Virus record (IMG/VR): IMGVR_UViG_3300025084_000191
Location: 1 to 25,788 of that record
DNA: 25,788 nucleotides
Origin: a virus
Lineage: Duplodnaviria > Caudoviricetes
Reading direction: 5' to 3' (one strand)
This document shows positions 3,347 to 25,476 of the stretch, piece after piece. The translations under genes and the position numbers were made by a program. The notes beneath the pieces were generated by a model. That model saw only the letters and a program-made list of their open reading frames with translations. It ran no database searches and had not been told where the DNA came from. Numbering within the stretch: position 1 is the first letter of the stretch; each line of letters begins with the position of its first letter.

Positions 3347-3943
3347 ATTTTCGTTAATTATTTCATTCAATGCTTCTAGTATTTGTTGGTCTGTTGGCTT
3401 TTGTTTTTGCATAGATTCAAATTTATCTGTAAAATAACCTTCTATACTTAAACCCTTAAGCTCCCCTGCTTTTATCTTTTGCCAAAGTTCTTCGTTCTCT
3501 ATCTTCATTTTGACGAACCAAGTGCCGTTAGGAAGGTCATAACCATACATCTTAGACTTATCCATATCACCTTCCTTAATCCAAGACTCAATAGTTAGAA
3601 CTCCTGAAACTCTATCTTGATGTTGATACGTAGCTTTGTGATGATTGTTATGTTTTAAATAAAGTTCACTAGCTTTTCTTACCGTATCAGGACTAAAATA
3701 AACATAGTAATCTGAGTCTGTATTTGGGTCGTGTCTAAATATTTGCTTGTTAGGAATTAAAGCAGGTGAAATTAACATACGTTTTTCTTTATCTACCTTT
3801 GCAAATGTCAAGTTGTTTTTCTCTTTACCAAAAAATACAAAGTCTTGTTCTATTGCAGGACTCGTAACCAAACTTATAGCATCAATAGCTAATTCTTGAT
3901 TATCGTCTTGAATAATTAGTTCTACTATTTTAGTTGCTTTCAT
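3329..3943 (-). CDS. Prohead (capsid maturation) protease, XkdF/Peptidase_S78_2-like
   Basis: AISLVTSPAIE, ALIPNKQIFR, ESWI, GTWFVKMKI and GELKGLSIEG motifs. Confidence 0.85.
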   Translation of the reverse strand: MKATKIVELIIQDDNQELAIDAISLVTSPAIEQDFVFFGKEKNNLTFAKVDKEKRMLISPALIPNKQIFRHDPNTDSDYYVYFSPDTVRKASELYLKHNNHHKATYQHQDRVSGVLTIESWIKEGDMDKSKMYGYDLPNGTWFVKMKIENEELWQKIKAGELKGLSIEGYFTDKFESMQKQKPTDQQILEALNEIINENQIKSK

Positions 3944-14568: not shown

Positions 14569-14908
14569 TTTCTACAAATGTTATTACAGGCATATTAATA
14601 GGTTTATTGCCTGATGTTATATCAATATTATTAGTTTCGTTCCAACCTAGTTTTGTTTTAGCTGCGTGTATTACAACTGATGGGACCTTGTCATTAACAC
14701 AATCATAGTATTTTGATTTTATAAAATCCTTTGAAATATTTTCTATATCATTTACTTTGTTAGCAAATTCTTCATCTTCTTTTAGCCATTTATAGAAATT
14801 AGTTCTTGATAAATCTGTTGTCTTTAAAGCAGTAGTTACAACCCCTAGACTTTTCTCTAGTGCTTTTAACATTTGCTTTTTTGCTATTTGTGTTCTATTT
14901 TGTTCCAT
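14555..14908 (-). CDS. terS: Terminase small subunit (HTH type)
   Basis: ALEKSLGVVT...SRTNFYKWLKEDEEF helix-turn-helix; immediately upstream of and overlapping terL. Confidence 0.8.
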   Translation of the reverse strand: MEQNRTQIAKKQMLKALEKSLGVVTTALKTTDLSRTNFYKWLKEDEEFANKVNDIENISKDFIKSKYYDCVNDKVPSVVIHAAKTKLGWNETNNIDITSGNKPINMPVITFVETDTE

Positions 14909-15728
14909 TAATATATGTTTTTAAGTCATTTTTTATCTCCCAATTCAATATTTTTTTGGTATCATTAGGAATAGTTACAGCATTATATCTTTCTCCTTTA
15001 CGTTCAGGAATAAATTCTATATTATCTGTAAACATTTTAGCAACATCAATTATCTTATAATCTTTATCTGAACTTAAATACCATTCTTTATTATAGTCTT
15101 GCTTTCTTATTTTATCTAAGGCATTAACTATATCATCTATATGGGTAAATTGTCTACTTTGATTTCCATTGCCTACAACAGTTAATGCTTTACCTTCCTT
15201 ATATTGTTTTTCAAATATTCCTATTACAGTTGCATAGTCTCCTTCTGATATATGATTCTTACCATAAACATTATAAAAATAACATACTTCATATTTTAAT
15301 TTATACCATTCTGAATAATTTTTAATCAACTCTACCATTTTAGCTTTTACCCAAGAGTAAGGACTTAAGTTTTCATTATTACCAAATTTACTACTAGACG
15401 CAGAATATATTAGTTTTGCATTCCATTTTCTACATTGTTCTAATACTCTGGTTGTTCCCCATAAGTTACTAGTCATTAAATATTCGACATCTTTAAAAGA
15501 AGGAACTACTCTTGAATATTCTCCAAAATGATATACTATATCTTGTTTTGGCAGTTTGTGTATATCCCAACTACAATCTTGTATATATTCAACACCCTTA
15601 ATATGATTTGCTTCTTTACCTGTAAAATAATTATCTAGTGAAGTTATCGTAGCATTAGTATGTTTTTTTAAATGCTTAATTAAATTACTTCCTACATATC
15701 CTGCTCCCCCTGTTACTAATATTTTCAT
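14895..15728 (-). CDS. NAD-dependent NDP-sugar epimerase/dehydratase (extended SDR)
   Basis: TGGAGYVG Rossmann motif, ASSS, catalytic YSWVK (YxxxK), FYNVYG and GNQSRQFTHIDD. Confidence 0.92.
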   Translation of the reverse strand: MKILVTGGAGYVGSNLIKHLKKHTNATITSLDNYFTGKEANHIKGVEYIQDCSWDIHKLPKQDIVYHFGEYSRVVPSFKDVEYLMTSNLWGTTRVLEQCRKWNAKLIYSASSSKFGNNENLSPYSWVKAKMVELIKNYSEWYKLKYEVCYFYNVYGKNHISEGDYATVIGIFEKQYKEGKALTVVGNGNQSRQFTHIDDIVNALDKIRKQDYNKEWYLSSDKDYKIIDVAKMFTDNIEFIPERKGERYNAVTIPNDTKKILNWEIKNDLKTYINGTK

Positions 15729-16606
15729 TTGTTATTTTTATAAAATCTTTGTAAGGTTTTACTTTTTATTTCTTTAACTTGTTTTAGTTTTAAGTCATTT
15801 TTTTTGTTTTTTATATCTTCCCAATCAATATCTTCTCTCCTTACCAATCCATGCTTAAAGTGTTTTCTCCAATTTACATAATGATGCGGTCTATTCCAAA
15901 CTATTTTTGTTTCTGCATATTGTGGCCATATTTCTTCTAAGGACCTTGCTTTCAAAACCTTTTTCTCAAAAGCATTTCCTAAATATAACTCATCTTGATT
16001 ACCACCTTTCATTTTAGCTGTTGTTGATGTTTTATCTACACAGAAAGCATTAAATAGTAAAGTACATAAACCATTATCTAATACTTGTAAACATAAATCA
16101 ACATCTTCATTATATTTTAATCTCCATCTATAAGGCATATTATTTTTCATTAGCATTGCACTGTACGCATGAACATTGAGCCAAAATGGTTTTTTAGTAG
16201 ATTGTGTAACAAATGTAGAATAGTTAAAACCCGTTATGCCTACATTTTCATATCTATCTGTAAATTCTTCTAAAGCTTTTATGGCTTTCTTACCATTACA
16301 AACAATTCTATTACCTTTATGTGCTCTCCTAAATAATCTTATATTGTCATCAAATACCCAATGCCTATCAAATCCGTTCTTAATACTATCTTCCCAAGCA
16401 TAGTTTCTAGCAGGATAACTACCTACACCTAAATTTGCAAAAGGTAGTTTTGTTACATATTTATCTCCTAATGACTTGCAATAGTTATCATATTCCTGTG
16501 GTTCAACTAATATTTGAAAATCAATATTATCATTTATAAATAGATTAGCTGTCATAGGATTTTCCCATCTTCCTTTAGATACTATATATACAGGATACTT
16601 ATTCAT
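15725..16606 (-). CDS. TAGT/GREB1-like GT-A glycosyltransferase (putative DNA base glycosyltransferase)
   Basis: YIVSKGR, VEPQEY, ARN, FDDNI (DD), NEDVDLCLQVL and KGGN motifs match the TET/JBP-associated glycosyltransferase pattern. Confidence 0.8.
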   Translation of the reverse strand: MNKYPVYIVSKGRWENPMTANLFINDNIDFQILVEPQEYDNYCKSLGDKYVTKLPFANLGVGSYPARNYAWEDSIKNGFDRHWVFDDNIRLFRRAHKGNRIVCNGKKAIKALEEFTDRYENVGITGFNYSTFVTQSTKKPFWLNVHAYSAMLMKNNMPYRWRLKYNEDVDLCLQVLDNGLCTLLFNAFCVDKTSTTAKMKGGNQDELYLGNAFEKKVLKARSLEEIWPQYAETKIVWNRPHHYVNWRKHFKHGLVRREDIDWEDIKNKKNDLKLKQVKEIKSKTLQRFYKNNK

Positions 16607-20630: not shown

Positions 20631-21262
20631 ATTAAGTTCTTTGCTTTTTGCCATTCATTAATTTGAGCATCTAACTTGGAAGTTCCCTTTGGCTTAGGTT
20701 TATCCCATTTCTTTTGATTAGTTACCCACGTCTTTAATCTTAATCCTGTCTTCCAAGTTTTGTTTAACTCGAATTTCATTTTTGTATTTGACTTATTTGG
20801 TTCAGTCCAATAATCTATAAAAGCATTTAATATACTTTCTTCATAATCAAAAGTTAAAACCTCAAAAACAAAATCATTCTTCCTATTAGATATATTATTA
20901 TTATTTGTATTATTAATATTAGTAGTATTACTCTTTACAGTTTTCTTTAATAGGGTATTATTGTTTTCTGTTATACCCCCCTTAAGAATTTTGATATACC
21001 TATTATCAATTTCTTTACTACCTTCCTTATAAGTATATTCTACTTCAATATAACCATACTTAACTAATTCACTTATCCAACCTGAAATAGCACCCTTACT
21101 TTTTCCATATAAATTAGCAAAATATTTATTAGTAGCAAAGCAATGACCATTCATATTGCATAACGCAGTAATCTCTGCGTACAGCAGTTTTGTGCTTGGT
21201 TTAAGGTTTATATCATATCTAACCTCTGCTGACAGTATAGCGTAATAGTTTGGCTTCTCCAT
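20627..21262 (-). CDS. Replication initiator (N-terminal wHTH, lambda O-like architecture)
   Basis: PNYYAILSAEVRYD...KLLYAEITAL...CFATNKYFA N-domain, Asn-rich linker, FIDYWTE...RLKTW C-domain. Confidence 0.85.
   Translation of the reverse strand: MEKPNYYAILSAEVRYDINLKPSTKLLYAEITALCNMNGHCFATNKYFANLYGKSKGAISGWISELVKYGYIEVEYTYKEGSKEIDNRYIKILKGGITENNNTLLKKTVKSNTTNINNTNNNNISNRKNDFVFEVLTFDYEESILNAFIDYWTEPNKSNTKMKFELNKTWKTGLRLKTWVTNQKKWDKPKPKGTSKLDAQINEWQKAKNLI
20885..21022. repeat. Putative replication origin: four degenerate 15-mers plus AT-rich tract inside the initiator gene
   Basis: gttttctttaatagg (20940), gttttctgttatacc (20963), gaattttgatatacc (20986), aatttctttactacc (21008); spacing 23/23/22 nt; nearly pure A/T tract at 20885-20930. 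Confidence 0.55.
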
Positions 21263-21771
21263 TATATTATATCAATTTTAAAATGATAGTTATTCATTGC
21301 TAACTTAATATTTTCTATTTGATTAGAAAAATCTAAGTATGAAGTATGGATAGTACATTTAGCTCTACCACTTTCTACCATTAATTTGACATCAGAATCT
21401 TTAGATTCCATCACTTTATTTTGCAATAGGTGATTTCTCATCTGTCTATTATTGATAAATATATCTTTCTGTCCATCAATATCTTTGTACTCCTTATAAA
21501 CTTTTGTAAAAGTATTTCTATATATTTTACAATGCTTAAAGTTCTTATCGTGAGTCCTTTCATAATGATATGTAGCTGTTCTATCTCTATTTAATACTTT
21601 AGCAATTACATTCCTGTCTATATTTTCTTCAATCAATCCAATATAACCTGCTACTGAACGAGCAGTCTGCAATTCCCTTTCTCTATTTTTTAAAGATAAA
21701 CAGCCACTAGGCAACCCTACTACTCTAGTAGTAAGGTCGCATATAGCTTTAAAGTTTAATTCTTCTGTCAT
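21262..21771 (-). CDS. DnaA C-terminal (domain IV)-like HTH protein, 169 aa
   Basis: R.RELQTARSVAGYI...IAKVLNRDRTATYHY resembles the DnaA domain IV signature. Start reassigned to ATG 21771, just after the SSB stop. Confidence 0.65.
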   Translation of the reverse strand: MTEELNFKAICDLTTRVVGLPSGCLSLKNRERELQTARSVAGYIGLIEENIDRNVIAKVLNRDRTATYHYERTHDKNFKHCKIYRNTFTKVYKEYKDIDGQKDIFINNRQMRNHLLQNKVMESKDSDVKLMVESGRAKCTIHTSYLDFSNQIENIKLAMNNYHFKIDII

Positions 21772-22520: not shown

Positions 22521-22717
22521 TTTTTGTTTATGTATTTAGTTAATTGTTGTTTTATATATTCTAATTGTTCTTCATCTATCCATTCTATAAAGTTATAAGA
22601 GTCAAAACAAATTTGAAAGTCATTACCATATTCATCTGTTCCTCTTAAATAAACTTCATTTTCGTGTGCTTGGAATGTATTAATATCATTCATTCTTTTA
22701 TGTATTAGTTCTGACAT
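22517..22717 (-). CDS. Hypothetical protein, 66 aa
   Basis: Coupled to neighbours at both ends. Confidence 0.65.
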   Translation of the reverse strand: MSELIHKRMNDINTFQAHENEVYLRGTDEYGNDFQICFDSYNFIEWIDEEQLEYIKQQLTKYINKK

Positions 22718-23290: not shown

Positions 23291-23590
23291 TTAAAATTGT
23301 TGTATTATAAATGCTCCGTTGCCTAATTCTATTACTTGTGTATAATCCATTATTGAATCAATATCAGGATAATCCTCGTGGTCATATTCTAAATGAAATT
23401 CTGCAATGTTATCATATTCTGAATATTCACAACATAAAGCTATTGGGTCAAACTCAATGCTTTCCCCTGTACTTTCTTCGTATTCCTCTAGGTAATCAAA
23501 TAACCCGTGTAAACCTACTCTGCTAAATTTATCTGGTCTGTTCTGTTGAAACCATCTGCTGAACTCATAAAAATTAATTGTTTTTTTCAT
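23291..23590 (-). CDS. Conserved acidic early phage protein, 99 aa
   Basis: FS..GL..LFDYLEEYEE.TGE.IEFDPIALCCEYSEY motif. Confidence 0.75.
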   Translation of the reverse strand: MKKTINFYEFSRWFQQNRPDKFSRVGLHGLFDYLEEYEESTGESIEFDPIALCCEYSEYDNIAEFHLEYDHEDYPDIDSIMDYTQVIELGNGAFIIQQF

Positions 23591-23605
23591 CTTAGTTTTA
23601 GTTTT

Positions 23606-23655
23606 GATTAAGACGCTTCACAGCGTTTCGACCATTGAGGTCTCGTCAGTTAATC
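23606..23655 (-). ncRNA. Type I hammerhead ribozyme
   Basis: GAUUAA CUGACGA GACC-UCAAU-GGUC GAA ACGCU-GUGA-AGCGU C UUAAUC: full CUGANGA/GAAA/GUC core and three perfectly paired stems; intergenic. Confidence 0.93.
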
Positions 23656-23658
23656 TAT

Positions 23659-23925
23659 TTAGTAGTTTAATTCAAGTAGCTCAAGTGCTTTTTGTTCTTG
23701 TTTCCATGTTCTGATGATACTTCCATTACCTTGATTGTATCGGTGGTCAAAAAATGCATATGGTGAATGTGTAATTGTGTCTTCACAAAACCAATACCAA
23801 ACATTTCCGTTTGAAGTGAATCCAATGAAGTTGCTTATTTTATGTTTTGTGTCTTCTGCTTTGATGAAAGATGTTTTGAATCCTTTGTTTTCGATTGCTT
23901 GTTTGATGTCTTTAATTCTTGCCAT
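23659..23925 (-). CDS. First early gene, hypothetical protein, 88 aa (MARIKDIKQ...)
   Basis: Start reassigned to ATG 23925, after the repeated A-rich leader and downstream of the promoter. Confidence 0.7.
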   Translation of the reverse strand: MARIKDIKQAIENKGFKTSFIKAEDTKHKISNFIGFTSNGNVWYWFCEDTITHSPYAFFDHRYNQGNGSIIRTWKQEQKALELLELNY

Positions 23926-23959
23926 TTTAGTTTTTGTTTTAATTAATAATTTGATATGA

Positions 23960-23967
23960 CAAATATA
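23960..23967 (-). promoter_or_regulatory. Early promoter, Bacteroidota -7 box TATATTTG
   Basis: TAnnTTTG match in the largest intergenic region, 34 nt upstream of ATG 23925. Confidence 0.7.
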
Positions 23968-24058
23968 AAACAAATATTTTAATTAACACTCTTTTTTACA
24001 AACTTTTTAACAAAAAATATGGTTCTTATCCAGTAGATTAAATAAAAAAACATTAAAA

Positions 24059-24808
24059 TTATAAAGGCATTAACAGATTTAGAGGTGTTTTTCCGTTATT
24101 TAAGACTATTGCACAACCAACTGCAGGACGTTTTCCATACTTTGCATAAGCCATTGCGTATGCTTTGTGATTAATTCCACAGCCAACCTGAGTTCCAAAG
24201 ACTCTGAACTTTTTACCAACATAATGCTCTGTATAACATTGTGTATGTAGGTGTCCTTGTACGGTATTCATCATATCTGCACGACATTTAGTCCTAGCCG
24301 TACCACCTTCTCCGTGTATATACTGTACATTATCTACTTCATATCTTTCCACAAAGTTCCAATCTGGTGTCTCTAATACTTCTTTATAAGACTTAATCCA
24401 TTTGCTAGGTATTGAGCTAGTCTGTGCCTTACGCATTATAATTCTGTCATGGTTTCCTATGATTACAGTAGCTTTAGGAAAAGCATTTCTCCATCTTGCA
24501 ATACGTTTGATAGCAAATTCTAATTCATCTGCACCACCCATGCCATCTGCTGAGGTTTCATGGTAGCTAGAAAAATGGTTGTCTATTACGTCTCCAATAA
24601 AGACTACTTCAGTGCATTTATAAGCATAGTATTGTTCTATGCACCAATCAAGATAGCCGTCTAAACAGAATGGTTCGTGCAAGTCTCCTATAACTAATAC
24701 GTTACGATTTTCAGACTCTCTCATTTTCTGTAAAGCGACTATCTCATGTGGCTTTAATCTATAACGATTATTTCTTTGACTTTCCAAAATCTGCGAATGA
24801 TTGTCCAC
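24059..24808 (-). CDS. Calcineurin-like metallophosphoesterase
   Basis: GDLH, GDVID, GNHD, HG and GHLH motifs. Exact start uncertain (GTG 24808 or TTG 24787). Confidence 0.9.
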   Translation of the reverse strand: MDNHSQILESQRNNRYRLKPHEIVALQKMRESENRNVLVIGDLHEPFCLDGYLDWCIEQYYAYKCTEVVFIGDVIDNHFSSYHETSADGMGGADELEFAIKRIARWRNAFPKATVIIGNHDRIIMRKAQTSSIPSKWIKSYKEVLETPDWNFVERYEVDNVQYIHGEGGTARTKCRADMMNTVQGHLHTQCYTEHYVGKKFRVFGTQVGCGINHKAYAMAYAKYGKRPAVGCAIVLNNGKTPLNLLMPL

Positions 24809-24957: not shown

Positions 24958-25476
24958 TTATTTATTTTTAATTATTAATTTAATATTTTCCCCCCCCAAA
25001 TATATAATTTCCTGCATAAGTAAATCCATAGCCAAAGATGAATTACTAACAAAGTCTTGTTGACGTTTCTGCCCTACTAGAATACAACCCCTTGAATCTT
25101 CTGCTTTATTGCCTTTGTGAAATAGTATATAGTCTCTATTAGGAACATCTTGTACTAATAGGTGTAAATAGTCTCTTGTACCACTTTCTCTAGGGTATCT
25201 AAGCCTTACATTATATTCTCCGATAGGAATACTAGAGATACGTCTTTGATTATCTTTATAAGGCAATTCTAAAGTATCACAGAACATTTCTCCATTTACG
25301 TGCAACTTGCCAATTATTGACTTTTTTGTAAAAGTATCTCTAATTAAAACTAGATTAACGACCTTGTCCTCTGTAAGTGTTTTTGTCTTGCTTTGAATGC
25401 CTACCTTTCCTTTTTCTTCTAACGCTCTTAGAAGTGCTTGAAATAACTTTACGAGCCATTTATTTATCTTCTTCAA
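24958..25476 (-). CDS. DUF5675 family putative endolysin
   Basis: LIRD....SIIGKL, CDTLE, IPIGEY, VPNRDYILFHKGN and DSRGCILVG (His/Cys catalytic-type motif). TTG start. Confidence 0.8.
   Translation of the reverse strand: MKKINKWLVKLFQALLRALEEKGKVGIQSKTKTLTEDKVVNLVLIRDTFTKKSIIGKLHVNGEMFCDTLELPYKDNQRRISSIPIGEYNVRLRYPRESGTRDYLHLLVQDVPNRDYILFHKGNKAEDSRGCILVGQKRQQDFVSNSSLAMDLLMQEIIYLGGENIKLIIKNK
25355..25459 (-). CDS. Nested basic peptide, 34 aa (MARKVISSTSKSVRRKRKGRHSKQDKNTYRGQGR)
   Basis: ATG immediately follows the stop of the upstream membrane protein; lies in another frame inside the endolysin 5' end; ends in YRGQGR. Confidence 0.7.
   Translation of the reverse strand: MARKVISSTSKSVRRKRKGRHSKQDKNTYRGQGR

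Follow-up and report, generated by a model that had tools for sequence, protein, structure and literature searches.

The window analysed here, a stretch of 25,788 nucleotides that makes up an entire assembled contig, looks like a tailed phage: genes for terminase, head protease, SSB, a replication initiator and NinG-like proteins all lie on its minus strand. Its terminase is 63% identical to that of Nonlabens phages, and this similarity, together with leaders that lack a Shine-Dalgarno sequence and the recovery of the region from marine RNA runs, points to a host among the Flavobacteriia. The stop of gene 1 and the start of gene 2 are separated by an intergenic gap of 68 nt that holds a hammerhead ribozyme motif (Table 1). 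The TAA of gene 1 ends 3 nt ahead of stem I, and the ATG of gene 2 at 23590 lies 21 nt past the predicted cut; an earlier interpretation made from the letters of the window (the sequence-only reading) had placed stem I, the cut and the leader in this way, and the coordinates agree. Gene 1 gave no match in PHROGs, Pfam or cultured phages, one viral locus is identical to it, and atlas matches stayed below 0.85.

Upstream of gene 1 lies a TAnnTTTG motif, which we take to fit the Bacteroidota promoter consensus and which would place gene 1 at the head of an operon running into the replication genes; gene order and this consensus suggest that it is the first early gene. A sigma-70 promoter scan returned 18 sites against 17.7 expected and no terminator, the scanned consensus being the wrong promoter type for this host. 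Genes 1, 2 and 3 share a near-identical A-rich leader (23946-23923, 23611-23588 and 23288-23268, minus strand). The four determinants of initiation described for Flavobacterium, A-3, A-6, A-12 and A-13 (PMC6847099), are all present before gene 2 and lie outside stem I, which takes up -21 to -16. Elsewhere on the minus strand, nucleotide-sugar epimerase-like and glucosyltransferase-like genes (14895-16606), possibly for glycosylation of DNA or capsid, are located just upstream of the terminase genes. Just upstream of the putative early promoter, at 24958-25476, a DUF5675 gene precedes genes for a membrane-like protein of 62 aa and for a metallophosphoesterase, and the DUF5675 region is possibly the lysis end of the late operon.

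Table 1. Features around the gap between genes 1 and 2, in minus-strand order
Feature	Positions	Strand	Description or basis
Putative Bacteroidota-type promoter	23960..23990	-	TAnnTTTG at 23967-23960, 19-nt spacer; -33 position AGTG here, TTTG in some relatives
335-nt cassette	23612..23946	-	leader, gene 1 and the ribozyme as far as the cut; absent from L002 and L594
Gene 1	23659..23925	-	88 aa; accessory, missing from most close relatives
A2.7	23656	-	predicted tertiary partner of first loop II base U (23638); covariation
Type I hammerhead ribozyme motif	23606..23655	-	sequence, Rfam match, folding, descriptor scan
Stem I 5' strand, GAUUAA	23655-23650	-	sequence
Core, CUGACGA	23649-23643	-	sequence
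Stem II	23642-23639 (GACC), 23638-23634 (loop UCAAU), 23633-23630 (GGUC)	-	
GAA	23629-23627	-	sequence
Stem III	23626-23622 (ACGCU), loop GUGA, 23617-23613 (AGCGU)	-	
C17 of GUC triplet	23612	-	predicted cut between 23612 and 23611
Stem I 3' strand, UUAAUC	23611-23606	-	sequence
A1.7	23605	-	predicted tertiary partner of last loop II base U (23634); covariation
Leader left on downstream product	23591..23611	-	21 nt; no Shine-Dalgarno; A at -3, -6, -12, -13
Gene 2	23291..23590	-	99 aa; widespread phage protein, phrog_9974

A type I hammerhead in the gap

The element comprises 50 bases, with a stem I of 6 bp, a stem II of 4 bp closed by a 5-nt loop and a stem III of 5 bp closed by a 4-nt loop, and its G+C content is 46% against 31% for the contig. 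It carries the CUGANGA core, the GAA, the A15.1-U16.1 pair and the NUH triplet of the hammerhead class; three stems surround the core, with stem II closed by G10.1-C11.1, and the topology is that of type I, stem I being open and stems II and III capped by loops. The sequence-only reading had called the minus-strand gap a complete type I hammerhead, and each component it listed was found in the sequence, with the minimum free energy (MFE) fold in agreement; the span of 23591..23658 that it gave is the whole gap, of which the ribozyme itself takes up 23655-23606. For 23680-23580 the MFE structure is the hammerhead (z -2.3), and four of 200 shuffled sequences folded as low.

The search with Rfam models proposed by that reading gave RF00163 (Hammerhead_1) as the sole Rfam match in the window at E<=1, aligned over the whole model (positions 1-45) with E 0.0018, at a score of 29.2 bits that falls below the gathering score of 34. 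A descriptor scan of both strands of the window returned the element as its single match, and among 200 Markov-simulated windows none held an equally strong match and two held a loose one. By sequence and structure the element is a real type I hammerhead, and it is very probably an active ribozyme. Hammerhead cleavage yields a 5'-OH and a 2',3'-cyclic phosphate end.

Geometry and loop contacts in a group of phage hammerheads

Pattern scans gave estimates of about 330, 1300 and 520 stretches of viral contigs for three stem II patterns and of about 160 for prokaryote genomes. The descriptor recovered at least 359 distinct type I hammerheads in the viral loci listed plus the window and 66 more in genome loci; it demanded pairing in stems I to III, so that covariation within those stems is partly by construction. 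Two scans without a requirement on stems I and III listed 242 core matches, 165 of them type I with a stem I of at least 5 bp. The other 77 (L342-L592), many of which stand right before a leader, have no type I arrangement of stems I and III and are probably type II or III hammerheads, with some chance matches in coding repeats. Among the type I matches listed, 314 of 359 have a stem I of exactly 6 bp and 318 of 359 carry GUC as the triplet; loci hold up to nine copies at a median spacing of about 500 nt, with at least two copies on one strand in 111 loci and copies on both strands in none.

Arrays of five to nine type I hammerheads were seen in L081 (1-6666) and L082 (1-6027), which belong to one contig, as well as in L152, L275-L277 and L266, with a copy behind almost each small gene, varied stems II and III and a shared stem I. 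The phage-like array contig of L275-L277 is binned in an Aliivibrio MAG, yet its leaders look Bacteroidota-like. A small extra hairpin follows directly after stem I near 3406 in L081, near 5791 in L082 and near 3830, 3431 and 1346 in L152; it sits in the new 5' leader and may shield the 5' end. Several type I hammerheads in prokaryote assemblies (L305, L332, L334-L336, L290 and L318) have no phage-like leader behind them, and two of these adjoin TA repeats, possibly as part of other mobile elements or contaminating DNA.

The position of the group relative to genes is narrow. Among the matches listed, 244 of the 349 copies with enough flank have an ATG 18-35 nt past the cut, versus 21 of 341 in the antisense control. 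The stop of a sense ORF falls no more than 10 nt from the start of stem I in 208 of 252 listed copies (control 27), or in 184 (control 7) when ORFs of at least 50 codons are required, a closeness that is partly built in because the motif itself contains stop triplets. Stop positions in the listed matches peak at +6 and +10, overlapping stem I or the core, and the distance from cut to ATG has a floor near 19-23 nt, with a median of 27 where a Shine-Dalgarno-like word is present (n=132) versus 23 where it is not (n=144). Both the ATG and the stop spacing of the listed matches support the earlier proposal of a protein-free processing site between cistrons, an idea that is not new (PMC3088659).

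The same geometry bears on what cleavage may be for. The ribozyme could cleave to destabilise, either cutting off the accessory gene or opening the message to decay and so confining expression to a brief early phase, much like a glmS ribozyme without its ligand, and cleavage in glmS does lower gene expression (PMC6765202). A position at the first genes of the operon fits short-lived products, and cleavage would depend on ribosomes being absent where a stop codon overlaps stem I or the core. The cut, however, always leaves a full initiation region, a spacing that a decay trigger does not need, and the upstream piece retains two hairpins at its 3' end; we regard destabilisation as unlikely.

Contacts between loop II and the flanks of stem I were analysed in those 326 listed copies that have a 4-bp stem II, a loop of 4-6 nt and a stem I of at least 6 bp (33 of 359 excluded); neither pair considered here was demanded by the descriptor, and the counts treat related copies as independent. 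Of these 326 listed copies, 297 have a last loop II base complementary to position 1.7 (shuffles: mean 207, maximum 226), as U-A in 241, A-U in 54 and G-C in 2, the 29 non-complementary cases including 21 G-A, and the first base of loop II and position 2.7 are complementary in 307 of the 326 (shuffles: mean 259, maximum 271). Both forms of the pair with 1.7 co-occur in 10 of 222 listed loci, some of them related. Covariation, one of the checks suggested with the sequence-only reading, was seen for both pairs, and close relatives keep core and stems. In the hammerheads of Schistosoma and sTRSV, U1.7 forms a Hoogsteen pair with the last A of loop II (PMC2553840, PMC9217987, PMC11875169). By covariation the same two positions interact in the present group, a minority of which has the U1.7/A form; unlike those ribozymes, the window copy carries A1.7/U in place of this canonical contact, as do most of the group members listed, and a second covarying pair joins 2.7 to the first loop II base. 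A literature search that covered few subscription journals found no description of the swapped A1.7/U form. If real, the swapped and doubled contact would widen the rules for fast minimal hammerheads and be useful for the design of compact insulators.

Folding models, which ignore tertiary contacts and ribosomes, predict stem I with a probability of 0.93-0.99 in the isolated element; once the end of gene 1 is added, the values fall to 0.00-0.23 in one set of folds and 0.11-0.47 in another, varying with window and temperature. For the group in context the median is 0.05 at 20 C (n=332, matches listed). The sequence-only reading had taken the short stem I for a slow timer that hides the leader of gene 2 until the cut. 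On its own, stem I has little stability (-2.1 kcal/mol), in the folding model of naked RNA it can be displaced by the end of gene 1, and the predicted unpaired probability at -21 to -15 rises modestly after the cut. Stem I, however, covers only the far end of the leader and leaves the initiation adenines outside, so that sequestration holds weakly at most, and the sequence that competes with stem I belongs to a coding region and is not conserved where relatives carry other upstream genes. Since the usual form in the group is a 6-bp stem I with covarying tertiary contacts, and since engineered hammerheads whose residue 1.7 is unpaired cleave fast (PMC11875169), a slow timer is not supported, and we hold it to be very improbable.

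The region is also present as contigs in four marine metatranscriptomes of one study, with flat cover across genes and gaps. Two of these contigs, X1 (23343-24413) and X4 (23357-23661), cross the cut site, which fits uncut RNA or DNA carry-over; no back-joint is listed among the RNA-library contigs, and assembled contigs cannot show RNA ends. Loose contig ends at 23611 and 23650 were considered as cleavage ends and rejected, as they represent other hammerhead copies that share only the core. Contigs from the marine RNA runs further hold an insertion of 105 letters between genes 4 and 5 to 6 (22711-22715) and a different segment within the replication initiator gene (20902-21264), indicating that the local phage population varies at further sites of the early region.

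Turnover of accessory genes in close relatives

Records sharing a 21-nt promoter-proximal motif were collected as close relatives, leaving out the window's own record (L597) and one that is too short and begins with gene 1 (L599) and merging duplicates of one contig, which left nine usable ones. Behind one promoter motif these near-identical records exhibit six gene orders, with the ribozyme present in five and absent in four. One record (L001) has gene 1, ribozyme and gene 2 as in the window, whereas L002 and L594 proceed directly to gene 2 and L598/L604 and L602 directly to gene 3. Two ribozymes are found in L003 and L596, in the order A, ribozyme, B, ribozyme, C, gene 2, and a single one follows X in L595 and B in L600, in both cases ahead of gene 2. 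Presence of the ribozyme follows the accessory gene upstream of it: it stands behind four of the five accessory genes (gene 1, A, B and X), C being without one, and gene 2 occurs both with and without a ribozyme ahead. As four of the nine relatives and gene C do without it, the ribozyme is dispensable. In a set of 75 gene 2 loci it is present in two (L001 and L003), more distant relatives having no such ribozyme, and a comparison of 11 loci with Rfam found no other ribozyme class at the same place. With between zero and two ribozymes downstream of a shared promoter motif, these near-identical phages amount to a natural experiment.

The cassette missing in L002 and L594 is bounded by 11-nt near-repeats (23946-23936 and 23611-23601), the second of which begins at the cut, and the 21-nt leader that follows the cut matches the final 21 nt ahead of gene 2 in L002 at all but one base. 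In L600 the leader of A is fused to the ORF of B, and in L598/L604 and L602 gene 2 has been lost between leader repeats with no ribozyme present; the fusion in L600 and the loss in L598 point to DNA recombination at short repeats. The motif could be mainly a hitch-hiking repeat or recombination site, with cleavage tolerated and no selected effect on expression: many phage pairs have similar ribozymes with differing gene neighbours, near-identical copies flank swappable genes, and some relatives lack the ribozyme. The observed crossovers, however, map to leader and start-codon repeats, and stems II and III are free to vary within a genome while core and contact bases are kept, which argues for selection for catalysis and not for DNA identity. 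Stem II is identical in 24 and stem III in 3 of the 125 adjacent same-phage pairs among the matches listed, and the six copies in five close-relative records other than the window's own differ only at N7, loop II position 2 and loop III, with no change in core, stems or contact bases. A mere hitch-hiking or recombination repeat appears quite improbable to us.

A further possibility is that pairs of ribozymes release single-gene RNAs that form circles or are spliced and are perhaps copied back to DNA as mobile cassettes. The missing 335-nt unit does end at the cut site, and stem I is more alike within than between phages (cross-pairing of 5.1 versus 3.8 of 6 among the matches listed, and perfect in 68 of the 125 adjacent pairs). 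Matching specific to circles is absent, however, since in these listed matches adjacent copies pair no better than non-adjacent ones (5.10 versus 5.07), and pairing is not favoured in the circle direction over the reverse (68 versus 76 of 125). Stems II and III do not clearly track the upstream gene, no clear asymmetry between upstream and downstream genes being found (stem III identity 0.68 in 16 pairs versus 0.65 in 17 pairs, at 70% protein identity). No reverse transcriptase was detected among the 39 window proteins scanned, and Perreault et al. sought circles and spliced forms without finding any (PMC3088659). With its single copy and a group that displays no adjacency-specific matching of stem I, the element also departs from retrozymes and viroid-like circular RNAs, which have tandem ribozymes and a circularising monomer. 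Of all readings weighed here, we consider RNA mobility the least probable.

Candidate insulator role and known systems

On balance, we think it probable that the element is a self-cleaving insulator at the 3' end of an accessory gene, with predicted cleavage shielding the downstream genes from insertions. This reading draws on the intact core, stems and GUC, the covariation, the fixed geometry relative to genes, the six gene orders and the known cleavage of tandem hammerheads; we counted against it the RNA contigs across the cut, the competition for stem I, gene C without a ribozyme, the four of nine relatives without one and the loss of gene 2 where no ribozyme is present. The DNA shows gain and loss of accessory genes directly downstream of a single promoter motif. 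Core conservation and covariation suggest that loop II contacts the flanks of the 6-bp stem I and confers a useful cleavage rate, and a ribosome on the stop of gene 1, 3 nt upstream, would block folding of the ribozyme. By the established chemistry, cutting would leave two hairpins and then a 2',3'-cyclic phosphate at the end of the upstream piece and a 5'-OH at the start of the downstream one. The gene 2 message would receive a 21-nt leader nearly as in the ribozyme-free relatives, and its 5'-OH may slow decay that depends on the 5' end, an effect described for such ends (bioRxiv 10.1101/2020.07.22.216051), so that the downstream early and replication genes would be expressed whatever is inserted upstream. 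The cassettes themselves would move via DNA recombination at the short leader and start-codon repeats and not via an RNA copy.

More tentatively, and with odds we put below even, the compact hammerheads may form a distinct subfamily, in which two swappable pairs clamp loop II to the flanks of a 6-bp stem I, and at the same time serve as the punctuation of an integrase-free phage gene-cassette system. The self-cutting 3' end of each accessory gene would recreate the promoter-proximal leader for the gene that follows and allow genes to be stacked or dropped without polar effect, as in a natural RiboJ array.

The early RNase III sites of T7 are cut between cistrons by a host enzyme that leaves a 5'-phosphate, and RiboJ is an engineered ribozyme insulator placed at the promoter. 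The element resembles both in that a cut between cistrons would give a defined 5' end independent of the upstream sequence. With Rfam RF00163 (clan CL00010) it shares topology and core, and it differs in lacking an extended stem I with an internal loop and in its loop II.

Perreault et al. described in 2011 that multiple hammerheads flank phage genes and proposed that they process long transcripts to gene-sized mRNAs. In their work tandem phage hammerheads cleaved both in vitro and in E. coli, and the type I hammerheads that they list comprise 860 from environmental sequences as well as copies in phages PaP3 and LUZ24 (PMC3088659). Like those clusters, the element is intergenic and on the sense strand, between small phage genes whose identity changes; the several copies per genome seen there are not found in this contig, which has one in 25.8 kb and may be incomplete, versus two in L003 and L596. 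The compact type I form with two loop II/flank pairs, the stop-to-start geometry and the strain-level turnover are not described in the available parts of that paper, and no matching sequence was found in the parts of its supplements that were covered; members of the group may be among the 860. The HHphage hammerhead of halovirus HF1/HF2 is alike in cutting just upstream of an early gene, and there a mapped transcript end lies within 3 nt of the cut; it differs in lying 13 nt upstream of a helicase gene, in belonging to an archaeal virus and in being a different structural variant (PMC3088659). The purpose of phage hammerheads was still listed as open by Weinberg et al. in 2019 (PMC6765202).

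Both the arrangement and the processing idea have thus been known since 2011, and what is added here is the variant contact and the strain-level cassette turnover; the basic phenomenon being known, the value of the locus lies in its testability and detail. Multi-copy queries against cultured phages returned only Cellulophaga phage phi19:3 and short, weak matches. An 86% identical copy with the same stem I lies between gp051 and gp050 of phi19:3 and overlaps the stop of gp051; unlike the window copy, it has an unrelated gene context and the U1.7/A form of the contact, and the element is unannotated there. Phage phi19:3 offers a close copy in a cultured Bacteroidota phage with its host.
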